Counted from the stretch's first letter, positions 1 through 61,632 are shown. The stretch: DNA of 64,000 nt from an uncultured bacterium (GCA_964487295.1 CAZAQL010000001.1:13091-77090), one strand, 5' to 3'. Notes: generated by a model from the sequence alone, not told the origin. Made by a program: numbers and translations.

Positions 1-1202
1 AGAAGTGCCCGGCGAAGACCGACTCGGAGTTCGAGGAGGGGCTGGCGAAGCGCAAGGCCATCTACACGCCGTTCCCGCAGGCCGTGCCGAACAAGCCCGT
101 GCTCGATGCCGAGCACTGCCTCTACATGCAGAGCGGCAAGTGCGGCATCTGCGCGAAGATCTGCCCGGTCGACGCGGTCGACTATGAGCAGAAGGACGAG
201 ATCGTGGAGGAGGAGGTCGGCGCCATCGTCGTCGCGACGGGCTACGACCTCTATCCCGTTGTGAACATCGGCGAGTACGGCGGCGGCAGGCTCAAGGACG
301 TTGTGACGAGCCTCCAGTTCGAGCGGCTGCTCTCCGCGTCCGGTCCGACGAGCGGCGAGGTGCGCAGGCCCTCGGACGGCAAGGTGCCGAAGGAGGTCGT
401 GTTCCTCACCTGCGTCGGCTCGCGCGATCCCGAGAGCCACATGCCCTACTGCTCCAAGATCTGCTGCATGTATCTGACCAAGCACGCGATGCTCTACAAG
501 CACAACGTGCACGACGGTCAGGCCTACCTCTTCTACATGGACGTCCGGACCGGCGGGAAGGGGTACGAGGAGTTCTACCAGCGAGCGACGGAGGAGGACG
601 ACGTTCTCTACATCCGGGGCAAGGTCTCGAAGCTCTTCGAGGAGGACGGCAAGGTCATCGTCTGGGGCGTCGACACGCTGACGGGCCAGAAGGTCGAGGT
701 CGCGGCCGACATGGTCGTGCTCGGCCTCGCGATGGTCCCGAACACAGCCGCCCTCGAGCTCGCGAAGAAGCTCAAGATACAGGTCAACGAGTGGGGCTTC
801 CTTTCGGAGGCTCACCCGAAGCTCAGGCCCGTCGAGAGCCTCGCGCCCGGCTTCTATCTCGCCGGCGCCGCGCAGGGGCCGAAGGACATTCCGGACGCCG
901 TGGCTCAGGCGTCGGGCGCCGCGAGCAAGGTCGCGTCGCTCTTCGCCGAGAAGGAGTACCACCGAGAGCCGATCATCGCGTTCGTCGACGAGGACGATTG
1001 CGCGGGCTGTCGCGTGTGCGTCTCGGTCTGTCCGTACGATGCGGCCCAGTTCGACGAGGAGAAGAAGGTGGCGCACATCCAGGAGGCGATCTGCGAGGGC
1101 TGCGGCGCGTGCATCGCGGCGTGTCCGTCCGGATCCGTGACGCAGAAGAACCTCACCGACGACCAGCTTTTCCACATGGTCACGGCGGCCCTGGAGGACT
1201 GA
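1..1202 (+). CDS. hdrA: heterodisulfide reductase subunit A (HdrA), C-terminal part; 5' end lies upstream of the window
   Basis: Frame 3 is open from the window edge (..CPAKTDSEFEEGLAKRKAIYTPFPQAVPNKP..) to TGA at 1200-1202. Two CxxCxxCxxxCP ferredoxin motifs sit near the C-terminus (CAGCRVCVSVCP, CEGCGACIAACP). The overall layout is typical of HdrA. Confidence 0.85.
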   Translation, partial: KCPAKTDSEFEEGLAKRKAIYTPFPQAVPNKPVLDAEHCLYMQSGKCGICAKICPVDAVDYEQKDEIVEEEVGAIVVATGYDLYPVVNIGEYGGGRLKDVVTSLQFERLLSASGPTSGEVRRPSDGKVPKEVVFLTCVGSRDPESHMPYCSKICCMYLTKHAMLYKHNVHDGQAYLFYMDVRTGGKGYEEFYQRATEEDDVLYIRGKVSKLFEEDGKVIVWGVDTLTGQKVEVAADMVVLGLAMVPNTAALELAKKLKIQVNEWGFLSEAHPKLRPVESLAPGFYLAGAAQGPKDIPDAVAQASGAASKVASLFAEKEYHREPIIAFVDEDDCAGCRVCVSVCPYDAAQFDEEKKVAHIQEAICEGCGACIAACPSGSVTQKNLTDDQLFHMVTAALED

Positions 1203-1203
1203 T

Positions 1204-1776
1204 ATGTTCGAACCGAGAGTCATGTGCTTCTTCTGCAAGTGGTGCACCTATGCCGGCGCCGATCTCGCGGGGACATCACGCAAGCAGTACCCGCCGAACG
1301 GCGTCGCAGTGCGCGTCAACTGCAGCGGGCGCGTGGATCCGCAGCACATTCTGTGGGCGTTCAGGGAGGGGGCGGACGGCGTGCTGCTGGGAGGGTGTCA
1401 TCCTGGTGACTGCCACTACCAGGACGGCAACTACAACACGATGCGGAGACTGTCGCTCCTCAAACCGATGCTCAAGGAGCTCGGGATCAACCCCGACCGG
1501 GTCCGGCTCGAGTGGATCTCGGCGGCCGAGGGCGACAAGCTCGTGCGCGTGATGAATGAGTTCGTCGATCACATCCGCGAGCTCGGCCCGCTCACCGTCG
1601 ATCTGGGCGAGGATCTCGCGGGTGTGGAAGGTCCGCCGGGTGTCGCTGCCGCGACGCCGAAGCGGAAGCCGGTCGCCGGCAAGCCGGCGGCTGCCGCTCG
1701 CGCGGCAGCTAAGCCGAAGCCGAAGGCTTCGGCATCCAAGGGCAAGGGAAAGAGATCCACAGCGAAGACGAAGTAG
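1204..1776 (+). CDS. mvhD: MvhD/FlpD-type hydrogenase iron-sulfur (2Fe-2S) subunit with a K/A/P-rich C-terminal tail
   Basis: The Cys pattern CKWCTYAGADLAG..NCSGRVD..GGCHPGDCHY matches the MvhD family. The ATG lies 2 nt after the hdrA stop, with GGAGG 6 nt upstream. The last ~45 aa are a lysine/alanine/proline-rich low-complexity tail. Confidence 0.85.
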   Translation: MFEPRVMCFFCKWCTYAGADLAGTSRKQYPPNGVAVRVNCSGRVDPQHILWAFREGADGVLLGGCHPGDCHYQDGNYNTMRRLSLLKPMLKELGINPDRVRLEWISAAEGDKLVRVMNEFVDHIRELGPLTVDLGEDLAGVEGPPGVAAATPKRKPVAGKPAAAARAAAKPKPKASASKGKGKRSTAKTK

Positions 1777-1844
1777 CTTGAGGACGGACGGGGAGGGGTG
1801 ACAAGCCCTCACCCCCCGTCGGACGAACAGGAGGAATGCCTGCG

Positions 1845-2528
1845 ATGGCAGAGGACATGGTCACCATCCACGTGATGGGAAAGGCGTACGAGGTCCCCTC
1901 GAACCTCACCATCATGAAGGCGATGGAGTACGCCGGCTACCAGTTCATCAGAGGGTGTGGGTGCCGGGGGGCGTTCTGCGGAGCCTGCGGCACGGTCTAC
2001 CGCACGAAGGACGACTACCGGCTCAAGGTCGGGCTGGCGTGCCAGGAGATGGTGCAGGACGAGATGTACCTCGCGGAGATCCCGTTCTTCCCGGGGAACA
2101 AGGCGACGTACGATGTCGAGAAGCTCAAGCCGACCTCCGAGACGATCCTCAAGCACTACCCGGAGGTCTTCCGCTGTCTCGCCTGCAACGCGTGCACGAA
2201 GGCCTGTCCGCAGGACATCGAGGTGATGGAATACGTGCAGGCGGCGCTTCGCGGCGACATCGCCAAGGCGGCCGACCTGTCGTTCGACTGCCTGCTCTGC
2301 GGGCTCTGCGCGTCGCGCTGTCCGGCGGAGATCGTGCAGTACAACGTGGCCCTTCTGTGCCGCCGGCTCTACTCGAGCAAGGTCGCGCCGCGCGCGGAGC
2401 ATCTCGCAAAGCGCGTGAAGGAAGTGAAGAAGGGCAAGTTCGACAAGGAGATGGCGAAGCTCAAGAAGATGAAGAAGCCCCAGCTCGCGAAGCTGTATGC
2501 GGAGCGCGAGATCGAGCCGGCTGAGTAG
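1845..2528 (+). CDS. succinate dehydrogenase/fumarate reductase iron-sulfur subunit-like protein (2Fe-2S plus two 4Fe-4S motifs)
   Basis: CRGAFCGAC fits the C-x4-C-x2-C 2Fe-2S pattern. CLACNACTKACP and CLLCGLCASRCP are 4Fe-4S motifs. AGGAGG lies about 10 nt upstream of ATG 1845; the ORF is also open from ATG 1836. The C-terminus is K-rich. Confidence 0.75.
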   Translation: MAEDMVTIHVMGKAYEVPSNLTIMKAMEYAGYQFIRGCGCRGAFCGACGTVYRTKDDYRLKVGLACQEMVQDEMYLAEIPFFPGNKATYDVEKLKPTSETILKHYPEVFRCLACNACTKACPQDIEVMEYVQAALRGDIAKAADLSFDCLLCGLCASRCPAEIVQYNVALLCRRLYSSKVAPRAEHLAKRVKEVKKGKFDKEMAKLKKMKKPQLAKLYAEREIEPAE

Positions 2529-2539
2529 GAGGAGGGCGC

Positions 2540-4168
2540 GTGTACACCGGAAAGATGCTTGAATCGATGAAGCGCCTGGAGGCCACCCGCAACGAGCGGT
2601 TGGGTCAGGAGATCCCGCTTCTCTCCCCCGAGGCCAGGCAGGAGCTGCTCGAGGGGTTCCACCCGGATTTCAAGGACGACGTGTTCCGGACCCTCAAGGT
2701 GGGACCGTCGAAGGGCGACCGGGCGCCGAAGGAGCTGGTCGACGCGTTCGAGGCGTACAGCGCGATCGATCCGGCGAAGTTCGATCTGTCGGATGTCGAC
2801 CGTGATGTGGATGTTCTGATCATCGGCGGCGGCGGCGCGGGCGCCGCGGCCGCGCTGGTGGCGGCGGAGCACGGTGCGGACGTGCTGCTCGCCACGAAGC
2901 TCAGGCTCGGCGATTCGAACACCGTGATGGCGCAGGGCGGCATCCAGGGCGCCGACAAGGCGAACGACTCTCCGGCCATCCACTACCTGGACGTGATGGG
3001 CGGCGGGCGCTACTTCAACGACCCTGATCTCGTCGAGGCGCTCGTCACCGACGCGCCTGATGTCCTGGCCTGGCTCGAGAAGCTCGGCGTGATGTTCGAC
3101 AAGGAAGCCGACGGCACGATGATCTCGATCCACGGCGGCGGCACATCGCGCAAGCGCATGCACGCGGCGCGCGACTACACCGGCGCCGAGATCATGAAGA
3201 CTCTGAAGGACGAGGTGCTCAACCGCGAGATCCCCGTCATGGAGTTCGCCGCGGCCTACGAGCTTCTGACCGACGGCAAGAAGGTCACCGGCGCGATCCT
3301 CTACAACATGGAGACCGAGGGGTACCTGGTCGTCCGCGCCAAGACCGTCATCATCGCCACCGGCGGCAGCGGCAGGCTCCACGTCATGGGCTTTCCGACG
3401 AGCAACCACTACGGCGCCACGGCGGACGGCCTCGTGCTCGGTTACCGCGCGGGCGCTCCGCTCACCTTCATGGACACGATCCAGTACCATCCGACGGGCG
3501 CCGCATACCCCGAGCAGATCCTGGGGCTCCTGGTGACCGAGAAGGTCCGCGGCATCGGCGGGCAGATCGTGAACGATGAAGGCAACCGGTTCATCTACGA
3601 GCTCGAGACGCGCGACGTCGAGGCCGCGGCGATCATCCGCGAGTGTCTCGGCCGCAAGAAGGGCGTCACGACGCCGTCCGGTCAGCCCGCGGTCTGGCTC
3701 GACACGCCGATCATCGACGTGATGCACGGCGAGGGCACGATCAGATCGCGCATCCCGGCGATGTACCGGCAGTACGAACGGTTCGGGATCGACATGACGA
3801 AGGTCCCGATCCTCATCTACCCGACGCAGCACTACCAGAACGGCGGACTCACGATCGACGCGACCGGCGAGACGAAGGTGAAGAACCTCTTCGCAGCCGG
3901 CGAGGTCGCGGGTGGCATCCACGGGCGGAATCGCCTGATGGGCAACTCGCTCCTGGACGTCGTCGTCTACGGCCGGCGCGCCGGAGAGGCGGCGGCCGAG
4001 CGGGCCGCGGGGATGAAGAAGGCCGGGAGGATGACGCTTCAGCATCTCGAGAAGTTCCACAAGGATCTCAAGGCGGCGCGCGTCGGCAAGGGGCGGGTGG
4101 CGCCCGTCCTGCTGCCGGAGTACCGCCGCACGGAGACCGTCGATCACCGTATCGGCGCTCTCGACTAG
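2540..4168 (+). CDS. FAD-dependent oxidoreductase of the SdhA/FrdA flavoprotein family (non-covalent-FAD type)
   Basis: GGGGAGAAAA is a dinucleotide-binding fold. HPTG and HYQNGG are catalytic-domain signatures of the SdhA/FrdA/L-aspartate oxidase family. Ser (SNTVMAQGG) occupies the position of the covalent-FAD histidine of SdhA. GTG start with AGGAGGAGGG upstream. There is an unusual ~85-aa N-terminal extension. Confidence 0.8.
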   Translation: MYTGKMLESMKRLEATRNERLGQEIPLLSPEARQELLEGFHPDFKDDVFRTLKVGPSKGDRAPKELVDAFEAYSAIDPAKFDLSDVDRDVDVLIIGGGGAGAAAALVAAEHGADVLLATKLRLGDSNTVMAQGGIQGADKANDSPAIHYLDVMGGGRYFNDPDLVEALVTDAPDVLAWLEKLGVMFDKEADGTMISIHGGGTSRKRMHAARDYTGAEIMKTLKDEVLNREIPVMEFAAAYELLTDGKKVTGAILYNMETEGYLVVRAKTVIIATGGSGRLHVMGFPTSNHYGATADGLVLGYRAGAPLTFMDTIQYHPTGAAYPEQILGLLVTEKVRGIGGQIVNDEGNRFIYELETRDVEAAAIIRECLGRKKGVTTPSGQPAVWLDTPIIDVMHGEGTIRSRIPAMYRQYERFGIDMTKVPILIYPTQHYQNGGLTIDATGETKVKNLFAAGEVAGGIHGRNRLMGNSLLDVVVYGRRAGEAAAERAAGMKKAGRMTLQHLEKFHKDLKAARVGKGRVAPVLLPEYRRTETVDHRIGALD

Positions 4169-13526: not shown

Positions 13527-15921
13527 ACTGAACTACCGGATTCGTACAGACACCCTTCGGACAGCGCTTGTCGCGACCGTCGCGCTGGTCCTGGCGCTCG
13601 GGGCGTCCGAGGCGGACGCACGCTGGCGTGCGACCGCCGACTCCCTCTACGCGGTGGCCGAGCTCCATTACCAGGGGTCTGACTTCGTCACCGCGGCGCG
13701 TCTCTATGGAGACATCACGGTCCTCCTCGACGAGCAGGAGGAGGCCGGGCTCGGATCGTACTTCGAGAAGCTCGGCGCCCGGGCCGCCTTCCTCAAGGCG
13801 CGGGCGTTCGAACGGGCGGGAGACTGGGAGCAGGCGGAGAAGGCATACGCCTCGGCGCTCCCCCTGATGCGGCCCATCGGCGACGCCGTCAACTTCCGCA
13901 TGGCCGTCTGCCGGCTCGAGCAGGACGACCTCGAGGGCGCGACATCGCTCCTGCGCGCGATCGTCGAGGACGGCGAGGAGACCTCGTTCGACGAACGGGC
14001 GGTCGAGGCGCTCGGCGACGCGCACCGCCGCTTCTCGGAGTGGGACCTGGCCATCCAGTGGTATCGCCTGCTGCTGGCAAGGGCGCCATCCTACGACGAG
14101 CAGGCGCGAATCCACACCAGCATCGGGATGACGCACGAGGCTCGCGGCGACCGCGAGACCGCGATGCGCAGCTACGCCAGGGTCGTTGACGAGTTCCCCC
14201 GCTCGCGGCACGCGCACGATGCGATGAAGGAGGCCAGGAAGCTCTCTCGCTCATTCACCGATCGCTACCACCAGGGTCTTGTCCTCTACAACCGGAGGCT
14301 CTACGCCGACGCCGCCGAGTTCTTCGAGCACTACATCAGAAACGACGACGATGCGACATGGCGGCTCGAGGCTACCTACTACCTCGGACGCGCGAACCAG
14401 CGGCTCGGACGATACGATGCCGCCGCGAAGCACTACGCGGCCGCGATCGCTATCGGCGAGGGCGACGGGGGCGGAGACGGTACGGCGACGCCCGACAGCG
14501 AGGAGTACCATCTCGCCTGGCAGCGCCTCGCCTACGCGCGGCGCGTGCTGGGAGACGCCCAGGCCTGCCTGTGCACGTACGACGACTACGTGGCGAGGCA
14601 CCCGTCCGCCGACCACGCCGCAGACGTGCTCTGGGAGAAGGCGCGCTTCCTCGAGGACGAGAAGCGATGGGACGAGGCCGCGGAGGTCTTCGCCCTGCTC
14701 GCGGAGCGCTATCCGCATACGGAGAGGGCCGGTGACGCGCGATTCCGACGTGGGCTCGTGCTCTACAAGAACGGCGACCGCGAGGCCGCCGAGGCGGCGT
14801 TCACGCGCGACGCGTCCGTCGCGCGCGGGGAGGACCTCGCCCGCGCCGCCTACTGGCTCGGGAAGACCCGCGAGGCGCTCGGCCATCGGCGCCAGCCGCT
14901 CGTCGACTACCGGCGGGCCCGCGAGAGCGCGCCGGACTCGTACTACGGAAGACGGGCGTCGGAGAGCCTCGTGCGACTCGGGGTCGTGGATCCGGCGCCG
15001 GAGCGGGACCCTTCCACGGCCGCGCTCCGCAGGGCGCGCGTTCGCCCGGCCTGGGCGAACGGACCGGGCCGTGACTACGGCGCGTGGCTCGCCACGTGGG
15101 CCGAGCGCACCTACGTCCCGATCGAGTACATCGCCGTCCGGGAGCGGCTCATGGCGGACCGGTGGTTCGTCAGGGCCGACCATCTGCGCGCCGTCCACAT
15201 GGACGAGAACGCGGAGGAGGAGTTCTCACGGCTGGAAGAGAGCACGGCGTCGGATCCCACGATGCTCTCCATGCTCGTGGACTACTACGAGCGTTCGGGG
15301 CTCAACCGCCGCGGCATCCGCCTCGCCGAGCGCATCCTGCGCATGTCTCCCGTCGAGAACGCGAGTGAGGCGCCGGTGTATCTCGCCGAGCGCATCTTCC
15401 CACGGCATTTCGAGGACGTCGTCGAGCCCGAGTGCTTCGAGCGCGGGGTCGACGCGAACCTCTACTACGGGCTGATGCGGCAGGAGAGCGTCTTCGAGTC
15501 CGACGCGGTCTCGTGGGTGGGGGCGCGAGGGCTCTCGCAGATCATGCCCGCGACAGGCCGGTGGATCGCACGTCGTATCGATCACGGGCGGTTCCGGCTG
15601 GATCACCTCATGGACCCCTCGACGAACATCCGCTTCGGCGCGTACTACCTCGCCGAGCAGCTCGCTGAGTTCCAGGGCGATCCCCTCAGGGCACTCGCGG
15701 CCTACAACGGGGGACCGCGCAACGTCCCGCGGTGGTGGGGATACGGTGGGTGCGACGACGTTGACGTGTTCGTGGAGGACATCGGATACGCCGAGACCTC
15801 GGACTACGTGCGTCGCGTCTACGCCTACTGGCGTCTGTACGAGGAGATCTACGGGCGTTCTCCGGCGCCGGCGGCCGCAACCCCGTCATTCCGACCGGCG
15901 TCCGCCGCTTCGTCATCCTGA
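13438..15921 (+). CDS. TPR-repeat protein with C-terminal SLT-family lytic transglycosylase domain (secreted)
   Basis: SLT domain GLMRQESVFESDAVSWVGARGLSQIMPATG..IRFGAYYLAEQL..AYNGGP. Signal-like TALVATVALVLALGASEADA. The only ATG/GTG/TTG upstream of the signal peptide is ATG 13438, which overlaps ptsI by 89 nt, so the start is uncertain. Confidence 0.7.
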   Translation: MPRLKPSPPGRSAPRRRPRSPWNSASREHELNYRIRTDTLRTALVATVALVLALGASEADARWRATADSLYAVAELHYQGSDFVTAARLYGDITVLLDEQEEAGLGSYFEKLGARAAFLKARAFERAGDWEQAEKAYASALPLMRPIGDAVNFRMAVCRLEQDDLEGATSLLRAIVEDGEETSFDERAVEALGDAHRRFSEWDLAIQWYRLLLARAPSYDEQARIHTSIGMTHEARGDRETAMRSYARVVDEFPRSRHAHDAMKEARKLSRSFTDRYHQGLVLYNRRLYADAAEFFEHYIRNDDDATWRLEATYYLGRANQRLGRYDAAAKHYAAAIAIGEGDGGGDGTATPDSEEYHLAWQRLAYARRVLGDAQACLCTYDDYVARHPSADHAADVLWEKARFLEDEKRWDEAAEVFALLAERYPHTERAGDARFRRGLVLYKNGDREAAEAAFTRDASVARGEDLARAAYWLGKTREALGHRRQPLVDYRRARESAPDSYYGRRASESLVRLGVVDPAPERDPSTAALRRARVRPAWANGPGRDYGAWLATWAERTYVPIEYIAVRERLMADRWFVRADHLRAVHMDENAEEEFSRLEESTASDPTMLSMLVDYYERSGLNRRGIRLAERILRMSPVENASEAPVYLAERIFPRHFEDVVEPECFERGVDANLYYGLMRQESVFESDAVSWVGARGLSQIMPATGRWIARRIDHGRFRLDHLMDPSTNIRFGAYYLAEQLAEFQGDPLRALAAYNGGPRNVPRWWGYGGCDDVDVFVEDIGYAETSDYVRRVYAYWRLYEEIYGRSPAPAAATPSFRPASAASSS

Positions 15922-16493
15922 CCGGCGTCCGCTACCCTGTCGTCCTGACCGGCGTCCGCCACCCCATCGTCCTGACCGGCGTCCGCCACCCCATCGTCCT
16001 GACCGGCGTCCGCCGGGGATGTGACCGTTCGATCCGCCCAATCCTCCACTTCGAGGATCACGTCAGCGTCGTTTTTCGTCTGCGTCGCCAGCACGTAGGC
16101 CCAGTTCGCGGCCACCGCGACGAGCACGACGGCCCAGGCGACGAGACGCTCCCGTCGCGAGAGCGTCACGCGCAACACGGCGCCGCGGGCGAGCCTGGCG
16201 ACGCCCAGCACAGCGGCCGCGGGGATCACGACGAGGATGATCAGCGCATCGAGCGGGTTGGTCCTCAGAGCGAGCCCTGGGTGGCCCCTCAGTACGGCGC
16301 CGGTGCCTCGCAGAAATCCACACGTGGGACAGGGAAGACCTGTCAGTCTGCGAAAGAGGCAGATGACGGGACCGTCCCAGTGCGCGGTAGAGAGCGCGGC
16401 GAAGAGCCCGAACGCCAGGATGAGCAGGGCCGCCGCGACCGCGAGTCGGGGTGGCCGCGGTGCGCCGTTAATGCGTTCGAGTCGGATCCTCAC
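15849..16493 (-). CDS. DUF2752-like membrane protein (CPTCG motif) with repetitive acidic C-terminal tail
   Basis: GLPCPTCGFLRGTGAVLRG followed by TM helices. GTG start. The tail ADAGQDDGV x4 is encoded by the 27-bp tandem repeat. The 3' end overlaps the convergent SLT gene by ~70 nt. Confidence 0.6.
   Translation of the reverse strand: MRIRLERINGAPRPPRLAVAAALLILAFGLFAALSTAHWDGPVICLFRRLTGLPCPTCGFLRGTGAVLRGHPGLALRTNPLDALIILVVIPAAAVLGVARLARGAVLRVTLSRRERLVAWAVVLVAVAANWAYVLATQTKNDADVILEVEDWADRTVTSPADAGQDDGVADAGQDDGVADAGQDDRVADAGQDDEAADAGRNDGVAAAGAGERP
15917..16018. repeat. 27-bp tandem repeat x ~4 (CCTGACCGGCGTCCGCCACCCCATCGT)
   Basis: Direct tandem copies seen at 15917-15943, 15944-15970, 15971-15997 and a partial copy at 15998-16018. 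The array spans the stop of the SLT gene. On the minus strand it encodes ADAGQDDGV x4. Confidence 0.85.
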
Positions 16494-16524
16494 GACGAAT
16501 CCTGCCGGCTCACACCTCGCATCC

Positions 16525-16896
16525 CTACCAGCCGGAACCGATGGCGGCCATGATGAAGGCGAAGTACGCGGCGTAGATGATGAGCGCGAGCGCCTGCAGC
16601 GCCGTGCCGACGATGCCGCAGATCATGCCGGCGCGCGTCAGGTCGGTGCCGGCGGGGTCACGGAGCCCCTCCCGCATCTCGCGGAGGTCACCGGAGCCCA
16701 TGACCCAGGCCATGATGCCCAGGATCGCGCCGATGCACGGGATGACGAGCGACAGGATGCCGAGAACGAGAATGACGGCCCCGCGCTGAGGATTCATGGG
16801 AGCGGCTGAGGTCGACACGTTCTGTGTGATGGCCGCCTCCGGGAGGTTGGGATCCCGCGGCGACTGCTCCGGAGTGCGCTGCGAAGACTCCTCCAT
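16525..16896 (-). CDS. DUF4190-like small membrane protein (paralog 2)
   Basis: Two TM helices flank the conserved AWVMGSGDLREMREGLRDPAGTDLTRAGMICGI motif. Q/P-rich N-terminus. ATG with AGGAGA RBS. Confidence 0.7.
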   Translation of the reverse strand: MEESSQRTPEQSPRDPNLPEAAITQNVSTSAAPMNPQRGAVILVLGILSLVIPCIGAILGIMAWVMGSGDLREMREGLRDPAGTDLTRAGMICGIVGTALQALALIIYAAYFAFIMAAIGSGW

Positions 16897-16984
16897 GGTG
16901 TCTCCTGGTCGTGCGGGAGACGCCCCCGCCCCCGACGAGGGAGAGGGGGCGTCCCCGCGGTCCGGCCGTCGTCGACGGCGGTCG

Positions 16985-17326
16985 CTACCAGCCGCCGGAA
17001 GCGGCGCCGATGGCGACGGCGAAGATCCAGATGATGAGCACGAGGACGTTGATCGCCACCGAGATGATCCCGCAGATCATGCCGGCGCGCGTCAGACCCT
17101 CGCCCGCGGGATCTCTGAGTCCCTCGCGCATCTCGCGGAGGTCGCTCGACCCCATTACCCAGGCAATGATGCCCGTGATGACACAGACCACGAGGCCGAT
17201 GATGCCCAGCGCCAGGATGACGCCGCCGCGGTGCGGCTGCATCATCCGGGGCGTTCCACCCACCGGCTGCTGCGCCGCAGGCTGCGCCTGCTGTCCCTGC
17301 GACTCGTACTGCGGGGTCTCCTGCAT
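16985..17326 (-). CDS. DUF4190-like small membrane protein (paralog 1)
   Basis: Motif AWVMGSSDLREMREGLRDPAGEGLTRAGMICGI. ATG at 17326, 2 nt after the iscU stop, with GGAGG upstream. The track ORF extends to a TTG at 17413. Confidence 0.7.
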   Translation of the reverse strand: MQETPQYESQGQQAQPAAQQPVGGTPRMMQPHRGGVILALGIIGLVVCVITGIIAWVMGSSDLREMREGLRDPAGEGLTRAGMICGIISVAINVLVLIIWIFAVAIGAASGGW

Positions 17327-17328
17327 GG

Positions 17329-17724
17329 CTACTCCTCGGATGGGGTGGACCGCTGCTTCTCCATGTAGTCCCTGATCGCCTTGTGGAGCGCGTCGGCTGC
17401 GAGGTTGGAGCAATGCATCTTCTGCGGCGGGAGGCCGTCCAGCTCGCTGGCGACGTTCTCGCGCGTGATCTCGAGCGCCTCCTCGAGCGTCTTTCCCTTC
17501 GCCATCTCGGTGACCATGCTGCTGGTGGCGATGGCCGAGCCGCAGCCGAACGTCTTGAACTTGATGTCGGTGATGACGTTGTCCTCGACCTTGATCTGGA
17601 TCTCCATGAGGTCGCCGCAGACGGGGTTTCCCTCGACCCCGACGCCGTCCGGTGATTCGAGCTCACCCACGTTCCGCGGGTTCCTGAAGTGCTCGAGGAC
17701 CTTCTCGCTGTAGATGGGAGTCAC
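17329..17724 (-). CDS. iscU: Fe-S cluster assembly scaffold IscU/NifU
   Basis: YSEKVLEHFRNPRNVG, GNPVCGD, FGCGSAIATSS and HCSNLAADAL are classic IscU strings. GTG at 17724 with AAAGGAG 9 nt upstream gives 131 aa. The track ORF extends to a TTG at 17787. Confidence 0.8.
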   Translation of the reverse strand: MTPIYSEKVLEHFRNPRNVGELESPDGVGVEGNPVCGDLMEIQIKVEDNVITDIKFKTFGCGSAIATSSMVTEMAKGKTLEEALEITRENVASELDGLPPQKMHCSNLAADALHKAIRDYMEKQRSTPSEE

Positions 17725-17908
17725 GGTGTCTCGCTCCTTTCCGAAGTATGCCCCATCAATGATAGACTCAGCGCGGGGGTCCGTCAAGACGGCGCGTGCC
17801 GGGAAAACCGGAAGCGGCGCCTTGCTGAGTTGAGCTCGGTGGTGCTACCATGACGGCTTCGAGCGCGCCTGAGAGCGCGATGGACGCAAACCCAGCCGAG
17901 GGAATCAC

Positions 17909-20185
17909 ATGATGAGCAGTCGGTCATCGATCAGCGTCGCGACAGCCGCCCTCTTCCTGACGCTCGCGCTCCCGCATTCGCTCTGCGCCCGCGGTGTGGG
18001 AGTGCCGCTTCCCGGGCGCGTGTCGGCGGCCGCCTCGGAGGAGGTTCGCAGGCTTCTCGAGCTCGACGCCGCCCGCACGCTCGCACGCGACGGCCGGCTC
18101 GCCCGGCAGGACCTCGAACGGGTCGACCTCGACGTCTGTGTCGACCCGGGTCGGGGGTGGCTCTCCGGTTCGGCGACGCTCCAGTTCGAGGCGACGACGA
18201 CCACCCTCGAGCTCTTCCTGAATGAGTCGCTCACGGTGCTCTCCGTGTCGGGTCCATCCGATCGCCCGCTCGGCTTCGAGCGCGAGGGGCGTCGTATCAC
18301 CGTTCCCATCGGTGCGTCCGTGGACGCCCGGACTCGCGAGATCACGATCGTGTACGAGGGGCTGATGCGACCGACGCACGGTGTGGTCGAGACCGGGCGT
18401 GGCCTGGCGGTTCTCCTCGGCGACGACTGCTGGTATCCCTCCTCCCACGCGACGGACAGGGCTCTCGTCCGTGCCGTCGTCAGGCATCCAGGCCGGTACG
18501 CCAGCGTGCTCAGCGGCTCGCTCGCCGGCATGGCGACGCCGCCCGCGACGCGTCCGGGGCCCTGTGCGTTCGGCGACGTCTGGGAGGCGGGGAACGTCTC
18601 GCCCTGCGCGCTCGTCGTCGGCAGGATCGAGAGCCGGTGGGGCGTTCTCGGTGACGTGTTCACCGGGGCCCATCGGGATACGTCCTCCGGAGAAGCTCGG
18701 GTGTCGCGCGGTGGACGGCGGAGCCCGGTCGACCATCAGGTCAAGCAGCCGCTCAGGTTTCTCGAGTCGTGTTTCGGTCCCTATCCCATGGACTGGCTGC
18801 ACGTGGTGGTTGTGCCTCACGGCCAGCTTGGTCGAGAGGCCGTATCAGGCCCCGGTCTCATCGTCGTGGAGGCCGATGAGGACGACCCGGCTTGCGCGGC
18901 CGATCCGGATCCGGACGCGTACTTCATGGAGCTGGCGCGGATGTGGTGGGACGACGCCTACGACGCCGGTCGCGTCGTCGCGGACGGACTGGCCGCCCAC
19001 ATGGAGCTCGAGTGGCTCGCGAGCGTGCGAGGCGAGGAGATCGCGTCCGAGCGCAAGGACCACCGAAGGCAGCAGTACATGCGCGCGCTGACCGACTCAG
19101 GAGGAGCAGCGCCACTCTCCCTCTGCCTCGGTCCGGACGCGTCGCAGGACGAGAGGATCTCCCTCGGACGGGGCGGCGCGCTCATGGACATCTGCTCCGC
19201 CGTGCTGGGCCGTGACGACTTCTGCCGCGCCGTGCGTCGGGTGGGCGAGGATGCCGGGAGCGGTGACGCGGGTCTCGGCGCGTTCGCGCGTGAGATCGAG
19301 GACGCCCTCGGAGACACCGTCGACTGGCTGCTTTACGAATGGGTGGCGCGGGGCGACCTTCCGGTCTACGCTCTCGAGTACGAGACGCGCCCGGCTCGAG
19401 GCGGAGGATACGTCATCACAGGGACGATCCGACAGCCCACGGAGCCGTTCAGAACGCCGGTGCCGTTGACGATCGACCTCGGTGGGTGGATCTACGACGA
19501 GTGGATCGCCATCGAGTCCGCCGACCAGCAGTTCCGGCTGGAGGCGGAGCTCGAGCCGCAAGCGGTCACGGTCGACGCCGGGAACGTGCTGCTCCGCATC
19601 GATGGCGAGGACCGGGCGCGCGTACATCACGAACTCGGACGTCGCGCGGCCGACGCCAGTCGCTGGACCGAGGCGGTCGACCAGTTCGGCGCGGCGGTCG
19701 CGCTCGACCCGGACCGGTCGGTCTACCGTTCGCGCTACGGCCTCGCCCTCGTGCGCGTCGGGCGCCCCGGCGACGGGCTCCGCGAGCTGCTTCACGCGAT
19801 CGAGCTCAGTCCCTCGAACAGCGACCTTCTGTTCACGACGGGGACGCTCTCGGCCAGGATGGGAGACCACGAGACGGCCGCGGAGGTCCTCGGGCGGTAC
19901 GTCCGGATGCGGCCCGCCGACCCTCGCGGCCACGTAGAGCTCGCCATGTCGCTCATCGAGCTGGGAGACCTCGAGCAGGCCATGGCGAACCTCGACCGGT
20001 GTCCGGTCGGCTCCGACACTACGACCACCGGCCAGTGGCTCGAGCGGTACCACATAGCGGTCGGGCGCTACAGCGAGGCGCGGGGCGAGACCGAGCTCGC
20101 GGTCGCGGCGTACGAGGCGGCGCTCGACGTCAACCCCGTCTCCGACGAGGCGCGCAGGAGGCTGGCCGCCGTTCGTCAGCCGTGA
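17909..20185 (+). CDS. secreted M1-aminopeptidase-like pseudo-peptidase with C-terminal TPR repeats
   Basis: Signal peptide MMSSRSSISVATAALFLTLALP. The segment YFMELARMWWDD aligns with the gluzincin HELAHQWFG motif, but both Zn-ligand His are replaced (M and R). TPR-like C-terminus. Confidence 0.6.
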   Translation: MMSSRSSISVATAALFLTLALPHSLCARGVGVPLPGRVSAAASEEVRRLLELDAARTLARDGRLARQDLERVDLDVCVDPGRGWLSGSATLQFEATTTTLELFLNESLTVLSVSGPSDRPLGFEREGRRITVPIGASVDARTREITIVYEGLMRPTHGVVETGRGLAVLLGDDCWYPSSHATDRALVRAVVRHPGRYASVLSGSLAGMATPPATRPGPCAFGDVWEAGNVSPCALVVGRIESRWGVLGDVFTGAHRDTSSGEARVSRGGRRSPVDHQVKQPLRFLESCFGPYPMDWLHVVVVPHGQLGREAVSGPGLIVVEADEDDPACAADPDPDAYFMELARMWWDDAYDAGRVVADGLAAHMELEWLASVRGEEIASERKDHRRQQYMRALTDSGGAAPLSLCLGPDASQDERISLGRGGALMDICSAVLGRDDFCRAVRRVGEDAGSGDAGLGAFAREIEDALGDTVDWLLYEWVARGDLPVYALEYETRPARGGGYVITGTIRQPTEPFRTPVPLTIDLGGWIYDEWIAIESADQQFRLEAELEPQAVTVDAGNVLLRIDGEDRARVHHELGRRAADASRWTEAVDQFGAAVALDPDRSVYRSRYGLALVRVGRPGDGLRELLHAIELSPSNSDLLFTTGTLSARMGDHETAAEVLGRYVRMRPADPRGHVELAMSLIELGDLEQAMANLDRCPVGSDTTTTGQWLERYHIAVGRYSEARGETELAVAAYEAALDVNPVSDEARRRLAAVRQP

Positions 20186-33390: not shown

Positions 33391-33459
33391 CCTGCCTCCT
33401 GGCGGCCATATCGGCTGCAAAGCCTGCCCACCAGCGCATCGCCGCCGGGGCGGCGCCGG

Positions 33460-33514
33460 ACCATCGCCGGGCCATCGCCGGGCCATCGTCGGGCCATCGC
33501 CGGGCCATCGTCGG
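33460..33514. repeat. 11-bp tandem repeat x 5 (GCCATCGYCGG)
   Basis: Five contiguous copies immediately upstream of the M14 gene promoter. Confidence 0.85.
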
Positions 33515-33535
33515 GCCGCGCTGAGGGGTCCCTCA

Positions 33536-33564
33536 TTGCTTTGCTCCGTAATCTGTGTTATCAT
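33536..33564 (+). promoter_or_regulatory. candidate sigma-70 promoter TTGCTT-N17-TATCAT in AT-rich island
   Basis: A local AT-rich stretch (cattgctttgctccgtaatctgtgttatcatttgaagttagg) in otherwise GC-rich DNA. AAGGAG 9 nt before ATG 33628. Confidence 0.4.
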
Positions 33565-33627
33565 TTGAAGTTAGGAGCAATCAAAGACGAGACGCCCGAT
33601 TTCCTCCTCGACAAGGAGATGGAGAGC

Positions 33628-36255
33628 ATGGTGCGTGTCCTGACAATCAGCCTTGCCGCGGCGCTGCTGGTCGCGGCCGCGGTCCCTGCGGCGGCCGGTC
33701 CCGAGGGGCCGTACGTGCAGGCCCGGGTCCAGTTCCGCGACGCCGCCGAGGCGGAGCGGTTCATGAGCCTGGACGAGCTCGACGTGATGAAGTACAAGCC
33801 CGGCGTCGGCGTTCAGCTCGTCACGAGCCACGAGCAGATCGAGGAGTTCCGGTCGCTCGGCTACGACGTCGTCATCGAGATCGATGACATGTCGAGCTTC
33901 TACGCCGCCCGGAACACGGCTCGCGGTTACGGTGACTTCTACACGTTCGACGAGACCGTGACCTTCATCAACTCGCTTCACGCGTCCTATCCGAACATCG
34001 TGAGCGAGCCCATCAGCATCGCGACGACGGAGCAGGGGAGGACGCTGTGGGCGCTCAAGATCTCCGACAACCCGGAGGTCGACGAGCTTGAGCCCGAGAT
34101 CCTTCTCGACGCGGTTCATCACGCGCGCGAGCCGATCACGATCAACGCCGTCCTCAACTACATGGACTGGCTGACGTCAAACTACGGGACGGACCCCGAG
34201 GCGACGTTCCTCGTAGACAACCGGGAGATCTGGTTCCTCCCGTGCGTCAACCCGGACGGCTATGTCTACAACGAGCAGACCGACCCCAACGGCGGCGGCA
34301 TGTGGCGCAAGAACCGCCGGGACAATGCCGGCAGCTCGTGTTACGGCGTCGACCCGAACCGCAACTACAGCTACCAGTGGGGCACGTCCGGCATCTCGTT
34401 CGACCCGTGCAGCGACATCTACTGCGGGACCCAGGCGTTCTCCGAGCCGGAGATCGCCGGCTACCGTGACTTCGTCGAGTCGCACGACTTCGTGACGAAC
34501 ATCACGTTCCACTCGGTCGCCGGAGCGATCCTGGTTCCGTGGAGCTACACGACCACATCCCCACCCGAGCCGGATAACACGATCTTCCGCGACATCGGCG
34601 ACATGATGGCGATGTCGAACGGCTACGAGGTCGGGACCGCGTACGAGACGATCAACTACACCTGCTCCGGCACCACCTGCGACTGGATGTACGGCGTGCA
34701 CGGGATCTGGTCGCTCTGCATCGAGGTGAGCGGCAGCGGCTTCTGGCCGCAGCAGAGCGAGATCGCCGGGCTCACGGCCGAGAACCTCTGGCCGCAGCAG
34801 TACATCAGCCGCATCGCGGGGGCCTACCTCGCGCTCAGCTCGACGCACTTCACCGGCGGAAACGGCGACCAGGAGCCGGACGCCGGCGAGACGCTCGACC
34901 TGACGATCACGGTCGAGAATCAGGGCGTCGTCGCGGACGCGTCGAACGTCCAGGTCACCCTGGTGACGGACGATCCGTACGTCGCGCTGCACGATGCGCA
35001 CACGACGCTCGGTTCGATCGCGGCGGGGTCCTCCACGCAGAACACGTTCGACCCGTTCTCCCTCTCGGTCGACGCGGGAACCCCGGACGGTCACGGTCTC
35101 GCCGTGACGCTCATCATCGAGGGCGACGGGCTGTACATGGAGGAGGAGCTGTCCTGGATGGTCGGCGAGCCGACGGTCGTGTTCTTCGACGACATGGAGA
35201 GCGGCACCGGCAACTGGGTCGAGAATGACGGCTACTGGGGTCTGACGACCTCGTCGTACCACTCGGCATCGAACAGCTACACGGACAGTCCGAACGGCAG
35301 CTACAGCAACTACCGGAACACGTGGATCGAGCTGGCGTCCCCGATCGACTTCTCCGCCGCGTCGGCTGCGGACCTCTCCTTCTGGCACCGCGTCTCCACG
35401 GAGGAGGACTACGACTTCTGCTACGTCGAGGTCTCGGACGACAACGGAGCGACGTGGAACCAGGTTGGCCCGAAGTACCACGGCAACAGCTACGGCTGGG
35501 ATCAGGTGGAGCTGTCGCTGAACGATTACGTCGGAACGGCGGGCTTCAAGCTCCGCTTCCGCTTCACGTCGGATACCTACGTGACCGCCGACGGATGGTA
35601 CGTGGACGACGTGACGATCAGCGGGCCGCCGACCGGCAACACGAAGCCGACCGCGCCGGTGCTGAACGACCCGCCCGATGGCGGCACGGTGTCGGTCTCC
35701 ACGCCGGAGCTCACGGTCACAAACGCCGTGGACAGCGATCCCGGCGACGTGCTCACGTACGGTTTCCGCGTCTACGACGACGAGTTCTGCACGAGCCTCG
35801 CCGCGTCGATCTCCGGCGTGGCCGAGGGCAGCGGAACGACGTCGTGGACCGTCGACTCCGGTCTCGCTGACGGCACGTACTACTGGCGGGCCTACGCGGA
35901 CGACGGGACCGAGCGAAGCCAGCTCATGGAGACCGCGTCCTTCACGGTGGAGAGCACGGGCGTCGACGAGGCCGTCGGCCGCCTCGCGCTCCATGCCGCG
36001 AGCCCGAACCCGTTTGCCGGTTCTGCGAGACTCTCGTTCTCGCTTCCCGAGCGAGCGGACGTCGAGCTCTCCGTCTACAGCGTTGACGGCAGACTGGTGC
36101 GAACGCTCGTATCCGGCGAGGCCGGTCCCGGCGTCATCGAGCTCACATGGGACGGTCGTGACAACGGCGGCCGCCGCGTGGGCAACGGCCTGTACTTCAT
36201 GCGCCTGACCGCGGCCGACGAGACGAGGCACGGCAAGCTCGTCATGCTCCGCTAG
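33628..36255 (+). CDS. secreted M14 zinc carboxypeptidase with MAM/jelly-roll-like and Fn3-like domains and Por/T9SS C-terminal sorting domain
   Basis: M14 zinc site HHAREP. Signal peptide. C-terminus ..SPNPFAGSARLSFSLPERADVELSVYSVDGRLVRTLVSGEAGPGVIELTWDGRDNGGRRVGNGLYFMRLTAADETRHGKLVMLR matches the T9SS CTD pattern. Confidence 0.85.
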   Translation: MVRVLTISLAAALLVAAAVPAAAGPEGPYVQARVQFRDAAEAERFMSLDELDVMKYKPGVGVQLVTSHEQIEEFRSLGYDVVIEIDDMSSFYAARNTARGYGDFYTFDETVTFINSLHASYPNIVSEPISIATTEQGRTLWALKISDNPEVDELEPEILLDAVHHAREPITINAVLNYMDWLTSNYGTDPEATFLVDNREIWFLPCVNPDGYVYNEQTDPNGGGMWRKNRRDNAGSSCYGVDPNRNYSYQWGTSGISFDPCSDIYCGTQAFSEPEIAGYRDFVESHDFVTNITFHSVAGAILVPWSYTTTSPPEPDNTIFRDIGDMMAMSNGYEVGTAYETINYTCSGTTCDWMYGVHGIWSLCIEVSGSGFWPQQSEIAGLTAENLWPQQYISRIAGAYLALSSTHFTGGNGDQEPDAGETLDLTITVENQGVVADASNVQVTLVTDDPYVALHDAHTTLGSIAAGSSTQNTFDPFSLSVDAGTPDGHGLAVTLIIEGDGLYMEEELSWMVGEPTVVFFDDMESGTGNWVENDGYWGLTTSSYHSASNSYTDSPNGSYSNYRNTWIELASPIDFSAASAADLSFWHRVSTEEDYDFCYVEVSDDNGATWNQVGPKYHGNSYGWDQVELSLNDYVGTAGFKLRFRFTSDTYVTADGWYVDDVTISGPPTGNTKPTAPVLNDPPDGGTVSVSTPELTVTNAVDSDPGDVLTYGFRVYDDEFCTSLAASISGVAEGSGTTSWTVDSGLADGTYYWRAYADDGTERSQLMETASFTVESTGVDEAVGRLALHAASPNPFAGSARLSFSLPERADVELSVYSVDGRLVRTLVSGEAGPGVIELTWDGRDNGGRRVGNGLYFMRLTAADETRHGKLVMLR

Positions 36256-39119: not shown

Positions 39120-39368
39120 ATCGAGCGTCGTTCCGTCTCTTCCCGCGGAATGACTGTCCCTCGGAAAGTTCTTGCGTCACCATTCAATTTTCGTTAGGAT
39201 ACTCATGAAGGCCCAAGCCGTGGTCGATTGTGGCTGAATCGAGTGTCAGTCGGGTACGATCACACGCGTCCTCACGGAGGATTCGAGAGCCCCCCCCGGT
39301 AGCGAACGCCGGAGGTCGGGGGCTGCCCCCCTCAGGATTCCGCGGCTTGCCGCTCCGTGAGGGTCGCA

Positions 39369-39386
39369 GGCTCCGATGCGGGAGCC
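39369..39386 (+). promoter_or_regulatory. palindrome GGCTCC-N6-GGAGCC immediately upstream of the TetR gene RBS (candidate operator)
   Basis: Perfect 6-bp inverted repeat, 17 nt before ATG 39403. TetR repressors typically bind palindromes overlapping their own promoter. Confidence 0.35.
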
Positions 39387-39402
39387 GGAGAAGGAGTCAT
39401 CC

Positions 39403-40008
39403 ATGGCACGGAAGAGAGTCGGGAACAAGCGCGAGAAGATCATCAACGCGGCGGCGAAGTTCTTCGGCGAGAAGGGCTACCACAACACGACGACCTCCGA
39501 GATCGCGGAGGCCGCCGGCGTGGCCGCCGGGACCATCTACATCTACTTCAACAGCAAGGAAGAGCTCATCGTCGCTGTCTTCGAGGAGTTCCTCGGGCGC
39601 CACATGGAGCGTCTCAGGGTGGGCGTCGAGTCCGTCGATGGTCCGATCGCGAGGATCCGCCGGCTCATGACGCTCGGACTCGAGCTCATGGAGAGCAACC
39701 CCGAGAGCGCGAGGATCTTCCTCTCGCAGCTCCGTCAGAGTACGACGATGATCAAGACGGTCGCCAAGCGCAGCAGCAGAGCCTACAAGGACATCATCGA
39801 GGCGGTGCTGACCGAGGGGATGACGAAGGGTGTCTTCCGTCCGATGGACACGGAGCACGTCGCCAGCATGCTCTTCGGCGCATACCAGATGACCGTGCTG
39901 GACTGGGTGGCGCGCGACTGCTCGTACTCACTCACGGCCAAATCGAAGGAGCTCGCTGATTTCGTGCTCATCGGTCTGGCCTGCGAGCTGCCGAAGGAGG
40001 ATTCGTAG
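39403..40008 (+). CDS. TetR/AcrR family transcriptional regulator
   Basis: HTH KREKIINAAAKFFGEKGYHNTTTSEIAEAAGVAAGTIYIYFNSKEEL. AAGGAG 7 nt upstream. Confidence 0.85.
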   Translation: MARKRVGNKREKIINAAAKFFGEKGYHNTTTSEIAEAAGVAAGTIYIYFNSKEELIVAVFEEFLGRHMERLRVGVESVDGPIARIRRLMTLGLELMESNPESARIFLSQLRQSTTMIKTVAKRSSRAYKDIIEAVLTEGMTKGVFRPMDTEHVASMLFGAYQMTVLDWVARDCSYSLTAKSKELADFVLIGLACELPKEDS

Positions 40009-40158
40009 GAACGAAGGCTCCCGGATGACGGGAGTCGCGGTGGTAACTGAAGTACTTCGGTTCGCCGTCCTGGGGAGTTGTCCGGATGGCGGATGGGCGG
40101 ATGCGGAGAAAGGCGCGGACATTCTCCGAACGGACGGCGACGCATGTGAGGTGATACC

Positions 40159-43041: not shown

Positions 43042-43089
43042 GGATAATTGGAAGCGAATGAGTGGGTCATGGCATCCGAACGGAGGAAC

Positions 43090-58728: not shown

Positions 58729-58809
58729 ACGGTCGTTCTCGACGACTACCGGTCGCTGATCGGCGGGTACGACCCGACCTTCACCTACCGGGACCCCGAG
58801 GCCTACCCG

Positions 58810-61410: not shown

Positions 61411-61479
61411 GTTCAATAGAGCGGAGAGGTCCGCGCGGCCGGCATGACGGCGCGTTCACAGCATACTGATTGAAAGTCA

Positions 61480-61508
61480 TTGACGACCTGCCGTCATTTG
61501 GGTATTAT
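61480..61508 (+). promoter_or_regulatory. near-consensus sigma-70 promoter TTGACG-N17-TATTAT with TGACG-N6-CGTCA palindrome over the -35
   Basis: AT-rich island (tgattgaaagtcattgacgacctgccgtcatttgggtattatcgtattgttg). ~125-nt leader before ATG 61633. Confidence 0.5.
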
Positions 61509-61632
61509 CGTATTGTTGTCGGACTACCAATCATCAACGAACAGAGTTGCTGCCAGCGGAAGGGTCGGCGGCCAGGTCGCGTTGTCGCGCCTGTCCGTGT
61601 CGCTCGTCCGCGCCATCACGGAGGAGCCGACG

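Follow-up and report, generated by a model that had tools for sequence, protein, structure and literature searches.

Iron-sulfur (Fe-S) scaffold proteins of the TIGR03419 type of IscU are usually encoded beside a NifS/IscS cysteine desulfurase. A second described group that is relevant here is the CD225/dispanin family, the motifs of which were taken from PMC3282796; for its eukaryotic members (IFITM, PRRT2), a descent from bacterial ancestors has been proposed (PMC3282796). Literature searches gave one incidental mention of DUF4190 and none of DUF2752, PF13828, or PF10825. We analyzed a 64-kb stretch of DNA from an uncultured bacterium (GCA_964487295.1 CAZAQL010000001.1:13091-77090), hereafter the window, with a GC content of 63-74% and most genes on the plus strand. 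At positions 15849-17724, four co-directional open reading frames (ORFs) lie on the minus strand, namely iscU, two DUF4190 paralogues (DUF4190a and DUF4190b), and a DUF2752 gene. A first-pass annotation, made from the sequence alone, had read them as a compact operon and taken the linkage to iscU as the sign of a membrane-associated role in Fe-S or metal delivery or sensing. We consider it likely, with a probability of roughly 70%, that two functionally separate units became one transcript in the lineage of the window, and that the operon is a secondary fusion.

The distribution of both units was surveyed with an alignment of 30 DUF4190a homologues against one genome per species, which yielded 80 loci. 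Locus content was determined by running the four window proteins against every locus with tblastn, together with a motif check, over about 4 kb per side. The 82 non-redundant loci comprise 21 loci of Eisenbacteria/Effluviviaceae and 61 others. The nearest DUF4190 loci are found in Candidatus Eisenbacteria metagenome-assembled genomes (MAGs), with L056 being labelled Candidatus Effluviviaceae, and the source genome is a relative of Candidatus Eisenbacteria. The remaining loci belong to Planctomycetota (Pirellulales, Phycisphaerae, Sedimentisphaerales, Gemmataceae, Isosphaeraceae), Chlamydiota, Holophagaceae (Acidobacteriota), Verrucomicrobiales, Spirochaetales, and one actinomycete MAG. Of the 80 genomes, 75 have DUF2752 immediately 3' of DUF4190 in the same orientation; they represent at least six phyla (Planctomycetota, Eisenbacteria, Chlamydiota, Acidobacteriota, Verrucomicrobiota, and Spirochaetota), and the adjacency is thus recurrent, as had been supposed. 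The number of DUF4190 copies varies (one in 66 of the 82 loci, two in 11, three in three, four in one, and five in one), and the distance from DUF4190 to DUF2752 is 9-30 nt in all measurable Eisenbacteria loci. The unit of conservation across phyla is one to five DUF4190 genes followed by DUF2752.

The iscU gene has a different distribution. It is present upstream of the module in 21 out of 21 Eisenbacteria/Effluviviaceae loci, but within about 4 kb of it in none of the 61 loci outside Eisenbacteria. The IscU-bearing loci have common flanks, with a tryptophanyl-tRNA synthetase (TrpRS) gene and a divergent tetratricopeptide repeat (TPR) gene on one side and a convergent TPR-SLT transglycosylase gene on the other side, followed in most by PtsI. 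Identities of the flanking TPR protein among these loci reach only 39-60%, which makes the iscU block old. The unrelated genes on either side (TrpRS, TPR, SLT, PtsI) are conserved to the same degree, and the link between iscU and the DUF genes therefore represents phylum-wide synteny. We found no recurrence of the adjacency independent of this synteny: the 21 loci share their flanks and the 61 others lack IscU. The neighbourhood comparison proposed in the first-pass annotation hence speaks against a functional reading of the iscU linkage. Among the Eisenbacteria loci, only the source genome shows precisely this set of four genes, with DUF4190 in duplicate; a second copy corresponding to DUF4190b was found in none of the 21 other loci of this phylum.

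Outside Eisenbacteria the neighbours of the module are clade-specific and include topoisomerase I and Cpn10 upstream, an aminotransferase, or a glycerate-kinase-like gene in Phycisphaerales. In 16 loci of the Phycisphaerae/Sedimentisphaerales type, a co-directional ORF just 3' of DUF2752 encodes a cysteine-rich protein of 88 aa (CxxCGACCKLPxxCPF...CxIYxxRPLNCRKYPR...TCG; e.g., L059:4397-4663, L028:2964-3230, L055:4774-5040). It resembles the YkgJ/CxxCxxCC family, although its Pfam score of 21 bits falls short of the gathering score, 23. In these loci, topoisomerase I and Cpn10 are found on the upstream side.

The spacer between iscU and DUF4190 differs strongly in length among the Eisenbacteria loci. 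The gap measures 2 nt in the window and in L001, L002, L009, L010, and L015, 36 nt in L056, 89-105 nt in five loci, and 159-267 nt in 11 loci (L006, L014, L018, L020, L021, L027, L032, L034, L036, L049, and L052; alignment A3). The 159-267-nt spacers are poorly conserved except for two invariant elements, a GC hairpin, in many cases with a T-rich run behind it, and after it a promoter-like box. This box, TTGAC(A)-N17/18-TCGTA(A/G)TC, is present in 11 of the 21 Eisenbacteria loci at about 60-70 nt upstream of the DUF4190 ATG, and takes the form TTGACA-N17/18-TCGTAATC between iscU and DUF4190; it is a candidate promoter of Eisenbacteria, and its -10 region is unusual. A consensus scan of two loci called the hairpin terminator-like in both of them, at 3870-3892 plus TCTTCTTTCT in L034 and at 3885-3912 plus CTATGTTTTC in L032. 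Upstream of iscU, the same two loci carry a TTGAC(G/C)-17-TATCAT box that matches the iscU promoter candidate of the window. The promoter-like TTGACA box also occurs in L089-L091. In the group with a gap of about 90 nt the hairpin is kept, and no TTGAC box was seen on inspection. A pattern search for the TTGACA box with an N{17,20} gap gave no match in the window and, its gap range being too narrow, matched only in loci with the 18-nt spacing. In most Eisenbacteria, iscU thus looks monocistronic and the DUF pair seems to have its own promoter.

When the SLT protein was used for a neighbour-joining tree, gaps of 2 nt occurred solely in the sub-clade of the window, which is sister to the group with gaps of about 90 nt; the 36-nt case (L056) is nested among long-gap lineages. 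Given this placement, the spacer contracted at least twice. An ancestral promoter of the module's own is also the more economical assumption, because the module occurs without iscU everywhere else.

We propose the following scenario. The first unit would be a solitary housekeeping NifU/IscU-type scaffold gene with its own promoter and, in most Eisenbacteria, a terminator-like hairpin behind it. The second would be a widespread membrane module of one to five tandem DUF4190 genes, with DUF2752 9-30 nt further on. In the Eisenbacteria ancestor, both units would have come to lie head-to-tail between the divergent TPR and the convergent SLT genes. In the sub-clade of the window, a spacer of 90-270 nt with its hairpin and TTGACA box would then have shrunk to 2 nt, and DUF4190a, DUF4190b, and DUF2752 would therefore now be read from the iscU promoter. 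DUF4190b would represent an ordinary tandem duplication, as in 16 other loci. The four window genes probably share one transcript, and in the source genome the three DUF genes almost certainly depend on the iscU promoter, as its gene arrangement indicates. DUF4190 and DUF2752 would form a small hetero-oligomer in the inner membrane, with the DUF2752 cysteine motif at the outer membrane face and thiol chemistry taking place there, for which IscU would not be required. The compact operon of the first-pass annotation would fit the window, where the cluster is co-directional and no internal promoter or terminator was detected, and the five relatives with a 2-nt gap, but seems not to fit the 11 relatives in which a hairpin and a promoter-like box follow iscU. 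A separating promoter and terminator and a lack of conservation, either of which that annotation had named as fatal to its proposal, are largely what the relatives display, while no such separator was detected in the window.

Several points weigh against a secondary fusion. Neither a terminator nor a second promoter was detected in the window, where the genes are indeed coupled, and the promoter-like box of the relatives fails the -10 rule of the scanner. Midpoint rooting of the SLT tree divides long-gap from short-gap clades and does not by itself fix the ancestral state, so that spacer loss rather than gain is the direction we infer. The 2-nt junction has been kept in six fairly divergent genomes (57-60% identity of the flanking TPR protein), and two or more spacer contractions could mean that co-expression with iscU was favoured. 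In addition, both DUF proteins contain invariant cysteines, and a putative Fe/Zn-binding CxxCxxCC protein stands beside the module in a second clade, which leaves some probability for a metal-related role.

Among the alternatives, a selective one survives best, even though we regard it as rather unlikely: the proteins would not interact biochemically, but their co-expression under a constitutive or stress-responsive iscU promoter would have been selected in the sub-clade, instead of the spacer being lost neutrally. It is favoured by the 2-nt junction in six genomes, with the Shine-Dalgarno sequence lying in the 3' end of iscU, and by the independent contraction to 36 nt in L056. However, the group with gaps of about 90 nt, in which the hairpin persists without the TTGAC box, suggests gradual decay, and the strong hairpin between DUF4190a and DUF4190b may uncouple the downstream genes anyway.

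The features of the locus are listed in Table 1. The coordinates, the GTG start and ribosome binding site (RBS) of iscU, and the spacings of 2, 88, and 31 nt between the consecutive genes, all given in the first-pass annotation, were reproduced. The GAGGAG Shine-Dalgarno sequence of DUF4190a is embedded in the 3' end of iscU, and the GC content at third codon positions (GC3) is 0.79-0.93 in the called frames of the four ORFs. A U-tract terminator was not found in region 15500-18200, and the promoter scan of that region found only the site at 17787-17759.

Table 1. Features of the iscU-DUF4190-DUF2752 locus, in window coordinates.
Feature	Position	Strand	Remarks
Sigma-70-like promoter candidate for iscU	17759..17787	-	TTGACG-17 nt-TATCAT; sole promoter-like site in 15500-18200
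iscU/nifU-type Fe-S scaffold gene, 131 aa	17329..17724	-	GTG start; AAAGGAG RBS 17734-17740; stop TAG 17331-17329
DUF4190a, 113-aa dispanin-like membrane protein	16985..17326	-	ATG 17326, 2 nt past the iscU stop
GC-rich hairpin in the DUF4190a-DUF4190b spacer	16913..16958	-	RNA fold, inverted repeat; without U tract
DUF4190b, 123-aa divergent tandem paralogue	16525..16896	-	ATG 16896; AGGAG upstream
DUF2752 core, three transmembrane helices	16066..16493	-	GTG 16493; Pfam DUF2752 match
Acidic C-terminal extension of the DUF2752 ORF, genome-specific	15849..16065	-	Tandem repeat (Tandem Repeats Finder, TRF) 15868-16014

The scaffold is firmly identified. IscU matches Pfam NifU_N (PF01592) with 170.9 bits against a cut-off of 22 (E = 1.6e-50) and, over its full length, the NCBIfam equivalog TIGR03419 (NifU_clost) with 204.8 against a cut-off of 187.9. 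The cluster ligands C36, D38, C61, H104, and C105, read off the translation, are all present. Its closest solved relatives are the archaeal/anaerobe-type chains 7c8m and 4eb5 in the PDB (187-198 bits, end-to-end alignment), and IscU identity across the Eisenbacteria loci is 81-89%. Partner proteins were searched for with Pfam in 47 composition-selected ORFs across the whole window, leaving a few short gaps between ORFs unscanned. Cysteine desulfurase, SufBCD, IscA, and HscAB gave no match among these ORFs, in line with the statement of the first-pass annotation that no iscS, iscA, hscAB, or suf gene is nearby, and IscR, HscB, and Fdx were likewise not found in the window. For an adjacent NifS/IscS in particular, there was no Aminotran_5 match in the 47 ORFs and none within ±6 kb in the syntenic relatives.

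DUF4190a and DUF4190b score 29.3 and 24.0 bits against Pfam DUF4190 (PF13828), both under the gathering score of 35. In their subfamily, 29 out of 30 members match PF13828 at E ≤ 0.1 (best 1.3e-9), and precomputed database annotation assigns this family to both window paralogues; by these scores they are borderline or divergent members. NCBIfam returned only sub-threshold hits to a ‘CCC motif membrane protein’ (25.5 and 35.8 against 65 bits). The two paralogues share 53% protein identity, a 151-nt stretch with 78% DNA identity, and the 33-residue motif AWVMGSxDLREMREGLRDPAGxxLTRAGMICGI already noted in the first pass. A search with DUF4190a retrieved 174 homologues at E ≤ 1e-3, while its exact sequence matched no recorded contig. 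Both the alignment and the AlphaFold2 (AF2) model show two hydrophobic helices around a short conserved loop with the signature DLxEMxxGxxDxxGxxxTxAGxICG. In the model of DUF4190a (predicted local distance difference test score, pLDDT, 79.9), a disordered N-terminus precedes helices at 34-67 (with a kink at 47-48) and 73-112, and residue 30, beside PHRGG, forms a bridge with loop residue 71. C48 is invariant and C85 near-invariant in the family. Lysine and arginine are nearly absent beyond helix 2, and some homologues carry N-terminal GYF_2 domains (Pfam annotation) or cysteine-rich N-termini that we read as zinc ribbons. Judging from the modelled bridge, the lysine plus arginine counts, the homologue N-termini, and the fusion protein described below, the topology is probably IFITM/dispanin-like, with the N-terminus inside, a re-entrant first hydrophobic segment, a cytoplasmic loop, and the C-terminus outside.

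No known structure could be matched to DUF4190: a Foldseek search of the model against the PDB gave generic transmembrane helices of Cys-loop receptors as best hit (E = 0.35), and the alignment profile found only noise among PDB sequences (E ≥ 0.16). We did not assign the family to CD225/dispanin. Weak matches to CD225 (PF04505) in eight of 30 relatives all stay below threshold (best E = 4.8e-4), the window DUF4190 proteins do not match PF04505, hhalign gave a probability of 0.5% against IFITM3, and helix 1 has a single cysteine instead of the CC motif.

The second paralogue departs from near-invariant positions, with NPQRG for PHRGG (glutamine for histidine) and a three-residue insertion around the helix-1 cysteine. 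These departures suggest relaxed or altered constraint after tandem duplication. The hairpin in the 88-nt spacer that precedes DUF4190b has about 19 bp; the fold of 16897-16990 has a dG of -56.1 kcal/mol (z = -2.75), and none of 200 shuffles was as stable. It may act as an attenuator or RNA-stability element for the transcript. The hairpin is unique in the window, which led us to reject a dispersed repeat.

DUF2752 scores 47 bits in its Pfam family (PF10825), for which the gathering score is 27. The CPTCG motif and multiple transmembrane segments reported in the first pass were found again; the full motif reads C45-x9-C55-P-T-C58-G. C45, T51-G52, C55-P-x-C58-G59, and N79-P80 are invariant in sets of 30 and 73 sequences, R62 is invariant in the 30-sequence alignment, and an N-W pair near the C-terminus is kept in 95% or more of the 73 sequences taken from the loci. 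For DUF2752, 2155 cluster representatives were found at E ≤ 1e-3, nearly all of them stand-alone proteins of about 136 aa. The AF2 model (pLDDT 83.8) consists of three long helices, with the cysteine motif on short helices and CPxC at a helix N-terminus. Lysine plus arginine counts of 6.7 versus 4.2 favour an inside N-terminus with the cysteine region outside, and in this model the motif would lie on the outer (non-cytoplasmic) membrane face. Thiol chemistry at this face, either metal binding or dithiol/disulfide exchange, is its most likely function. Neither NCBIfam nor the profile search of PDB sequences gave a match for DUF2752, and the PADLOC defence models (E ≤ 0.01) matched none of DUF4190a, DUF4190b, and DUF2752.

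The DUF2752 ORF of the window runs about 70 codons beyond the stop position of its relatives (...NWAYVLxTQx, 139 aa). This tail contains a 27-nt repeat in 5.4 copies (15868-16014, 86% matches by TRF) that encodes an acidic (ADAGQDDGV)n stretch. The repeat is also read by the convergent SLT ORF, which is extended and ends at 15921, giving a 73-nt overlap of both ORFs. The tail is absent from all relatives, the 21 other Eisenbacteria DUF2752 proteins ending about 70 codons sooner, and its coding status is doubtful.

In L089 (2685-3495; identical in L090 and L091; protein P0153), an in-frame fusion joins a DUF4190 core to DUF2752, helix 2 of the former taking the place of helix 1 of the latter. 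The fusion stems from one Eisenbacteria lineage, represented by five contigs (ENA, Logan, JGI/NCBI), and shows an apparent +1 frameshift after its MQEAPQ N-terminus. It could be a natural Rosetta-stone fusion or else a gene in decay. The in-frame fusion argues for a joint function and a compatible topology of DUF4190 and DUF2752.

These protein features bear on the role that the first-pass annotation had proposed, in which DUF4190 and DUF2752 form with IscU a membrane-associated device for Fe-S or metal delivery or sensing and the coupling reflects a shared function; the scaffold could be docked at the membrane, for example, or iron, sulfur, or clusters could be passed via the conserved cysteines. 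We consider such a device unlikely. The co-directional three-gene block in 21 of 21 Eisenbacteria/Effluviviaceae loci, the tight junction of six genomes, and the two independent spacer contractions are compatible with it, as are the invariant cysteines (C45, C55, and C58 of DUF2752, C48 of DUF4190, with C85 near-invariant), the lack of an adjacent NifS partner for the window iscU, and the CxxCxxCC-like protein after the module in 16 Planctomycetota loci. However, IscU is missing from the neighbourhood of all 61 non-Eisenbacteria loci, unrelated flanking genes are equally syntenic, and a hairpin and conserved promoter-like box separate iscU from DUF4190 in 11 of the 21 Eisenbacteria loci. Moreover, the predicted position of the DUF2752 cysteine motif on the non-cytoplasmic face is away from the cytoplasmic IscU, and the 16 CxxCxxCC loci are a single syntenic clade and thus count as one event. 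As a link restricted to this lineage, an Fe-S or metal-delivery role is similarly improbable. Its narrower form, in which a thiol- or metal-handling module, composed of a bacterial dispanin-like subunit and a partner with C-x9-CPxC, was recruited in Eisenbacteria to a solitary NifU-type scaffold for iron supply, sensing, or as a membrane tether, is quite unlikely; if true, the tightening of the junction and the CxxCxxCC neighbour in Phycisphaerae would be two independent traces of one metal-centred function. That one or more of the small ORFs arose by chance in DNA of 69% GC is extremely improbable and effectively refuted for the ORF cores: long spurious ORFs are frequent in high-GC genomes, the DUF4190 scores fall short of the Pfam gathering score, and the DUF2752 tail is a tandem repeat, but the numbers of DUF4190 homologues and DUF2752 cluster representatives, the residues and gene order conserved across phyla, and the in-frame GC3 of 0.79-0.90 all speak against it.

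If true, the proposal of an additional, membrane-bound arm of Fe-S biogenesis would be of note, but the comparative evidence lends it no support. Read as a secondary fusion, the locus would be a clean example of an operon-like juxtaposition that results from spacer loss between unrelated units, and it calls for caution in guilt-by-association annotation from a juxtaposition seen in a single lineage. The analysis also defines the [DUF4190]n-DUF2752 module as a tightly coupled, multi-phylum unit with invariant cysteines and a probable IFITM-like topology, without a solved or characterised relative.

Elsewhere in the window, region 3-4168 encodes a Fer4-domain protein, an MvhD/FlpD-like protein, a second Fer4 protein, and a 547-aa FAD_binding_2 flavoprotein. 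Together these proteins, which are Fe-S clients, make up an electron-transfer set of the heterodisulfide-reductase or Qmo-like kind. Large secreted-type proteins (M14 carboxypeptidase, beta-helix/NosD-like, DUF6689) are encoded at 33391-36255, 43048-44868, 58729-61323, and 61474-63543; all end in a FlgD_ig-like C-terminal domain, which points to a common signal for sorting or anchoring in the phylum. A TetR regulator adjoins a radical SAM/SPASM enzyme at 39361-41670, which may be a peptide-maturation locus.

Compared with the canonical isc operon (iscRSUA-hscBA-fdx), the locus likewise has an IscU-type scaffold as promoter-proximal gene, but genes for membrane proteins follow downstream and IscR, IscS, IscA, HscB, HscA, and Fdx were not detected in the window. 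The clostridial/archaeal ‘minimal’ NIF/ISC type (TIGR03419; 7c8m, 4eb5) shares the ligand set and an LPPxK-like segment (LPPQKMHCS in the window IscU), and differs in that the window iscU has no desulfurase in the ORFs scanned across 64 kb and is followed by two DUF families. The DUF4190-DUF2752 pairs of Planctomycetota, Chlamydiota, Holophagaceae, Verrucomicrobiales, and Spirochaetales have the same order, strand, and short gap, a C-x9-CPxCG partner, and a variable copy number, and they share with the window the subfamily signature PHRGG...C...AWVMGxxDLxEMxxGxxDxxGxxxTxAGxICG; IscU is absent there, and only the window DUF2752 has the repeat tail. With the CD225/dispanin proteins (IFITM, PF04505; PMC3282796), DUF4190 shares the build of a small two-helix membrane protein, a conserved cysteine in the first hydrophobic segment (one cysteine, compared to the CC motif of dispanins), a charged loop with glycine and aspartate, a variable proline-rich N-terminus, and the predicted topology. 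Given the proposed bacterial ancestry of dispanins (PMC3282796), knowing with which obligate partner a dispanin-like protein is paired in bacteria could guide work on their ancestral function.

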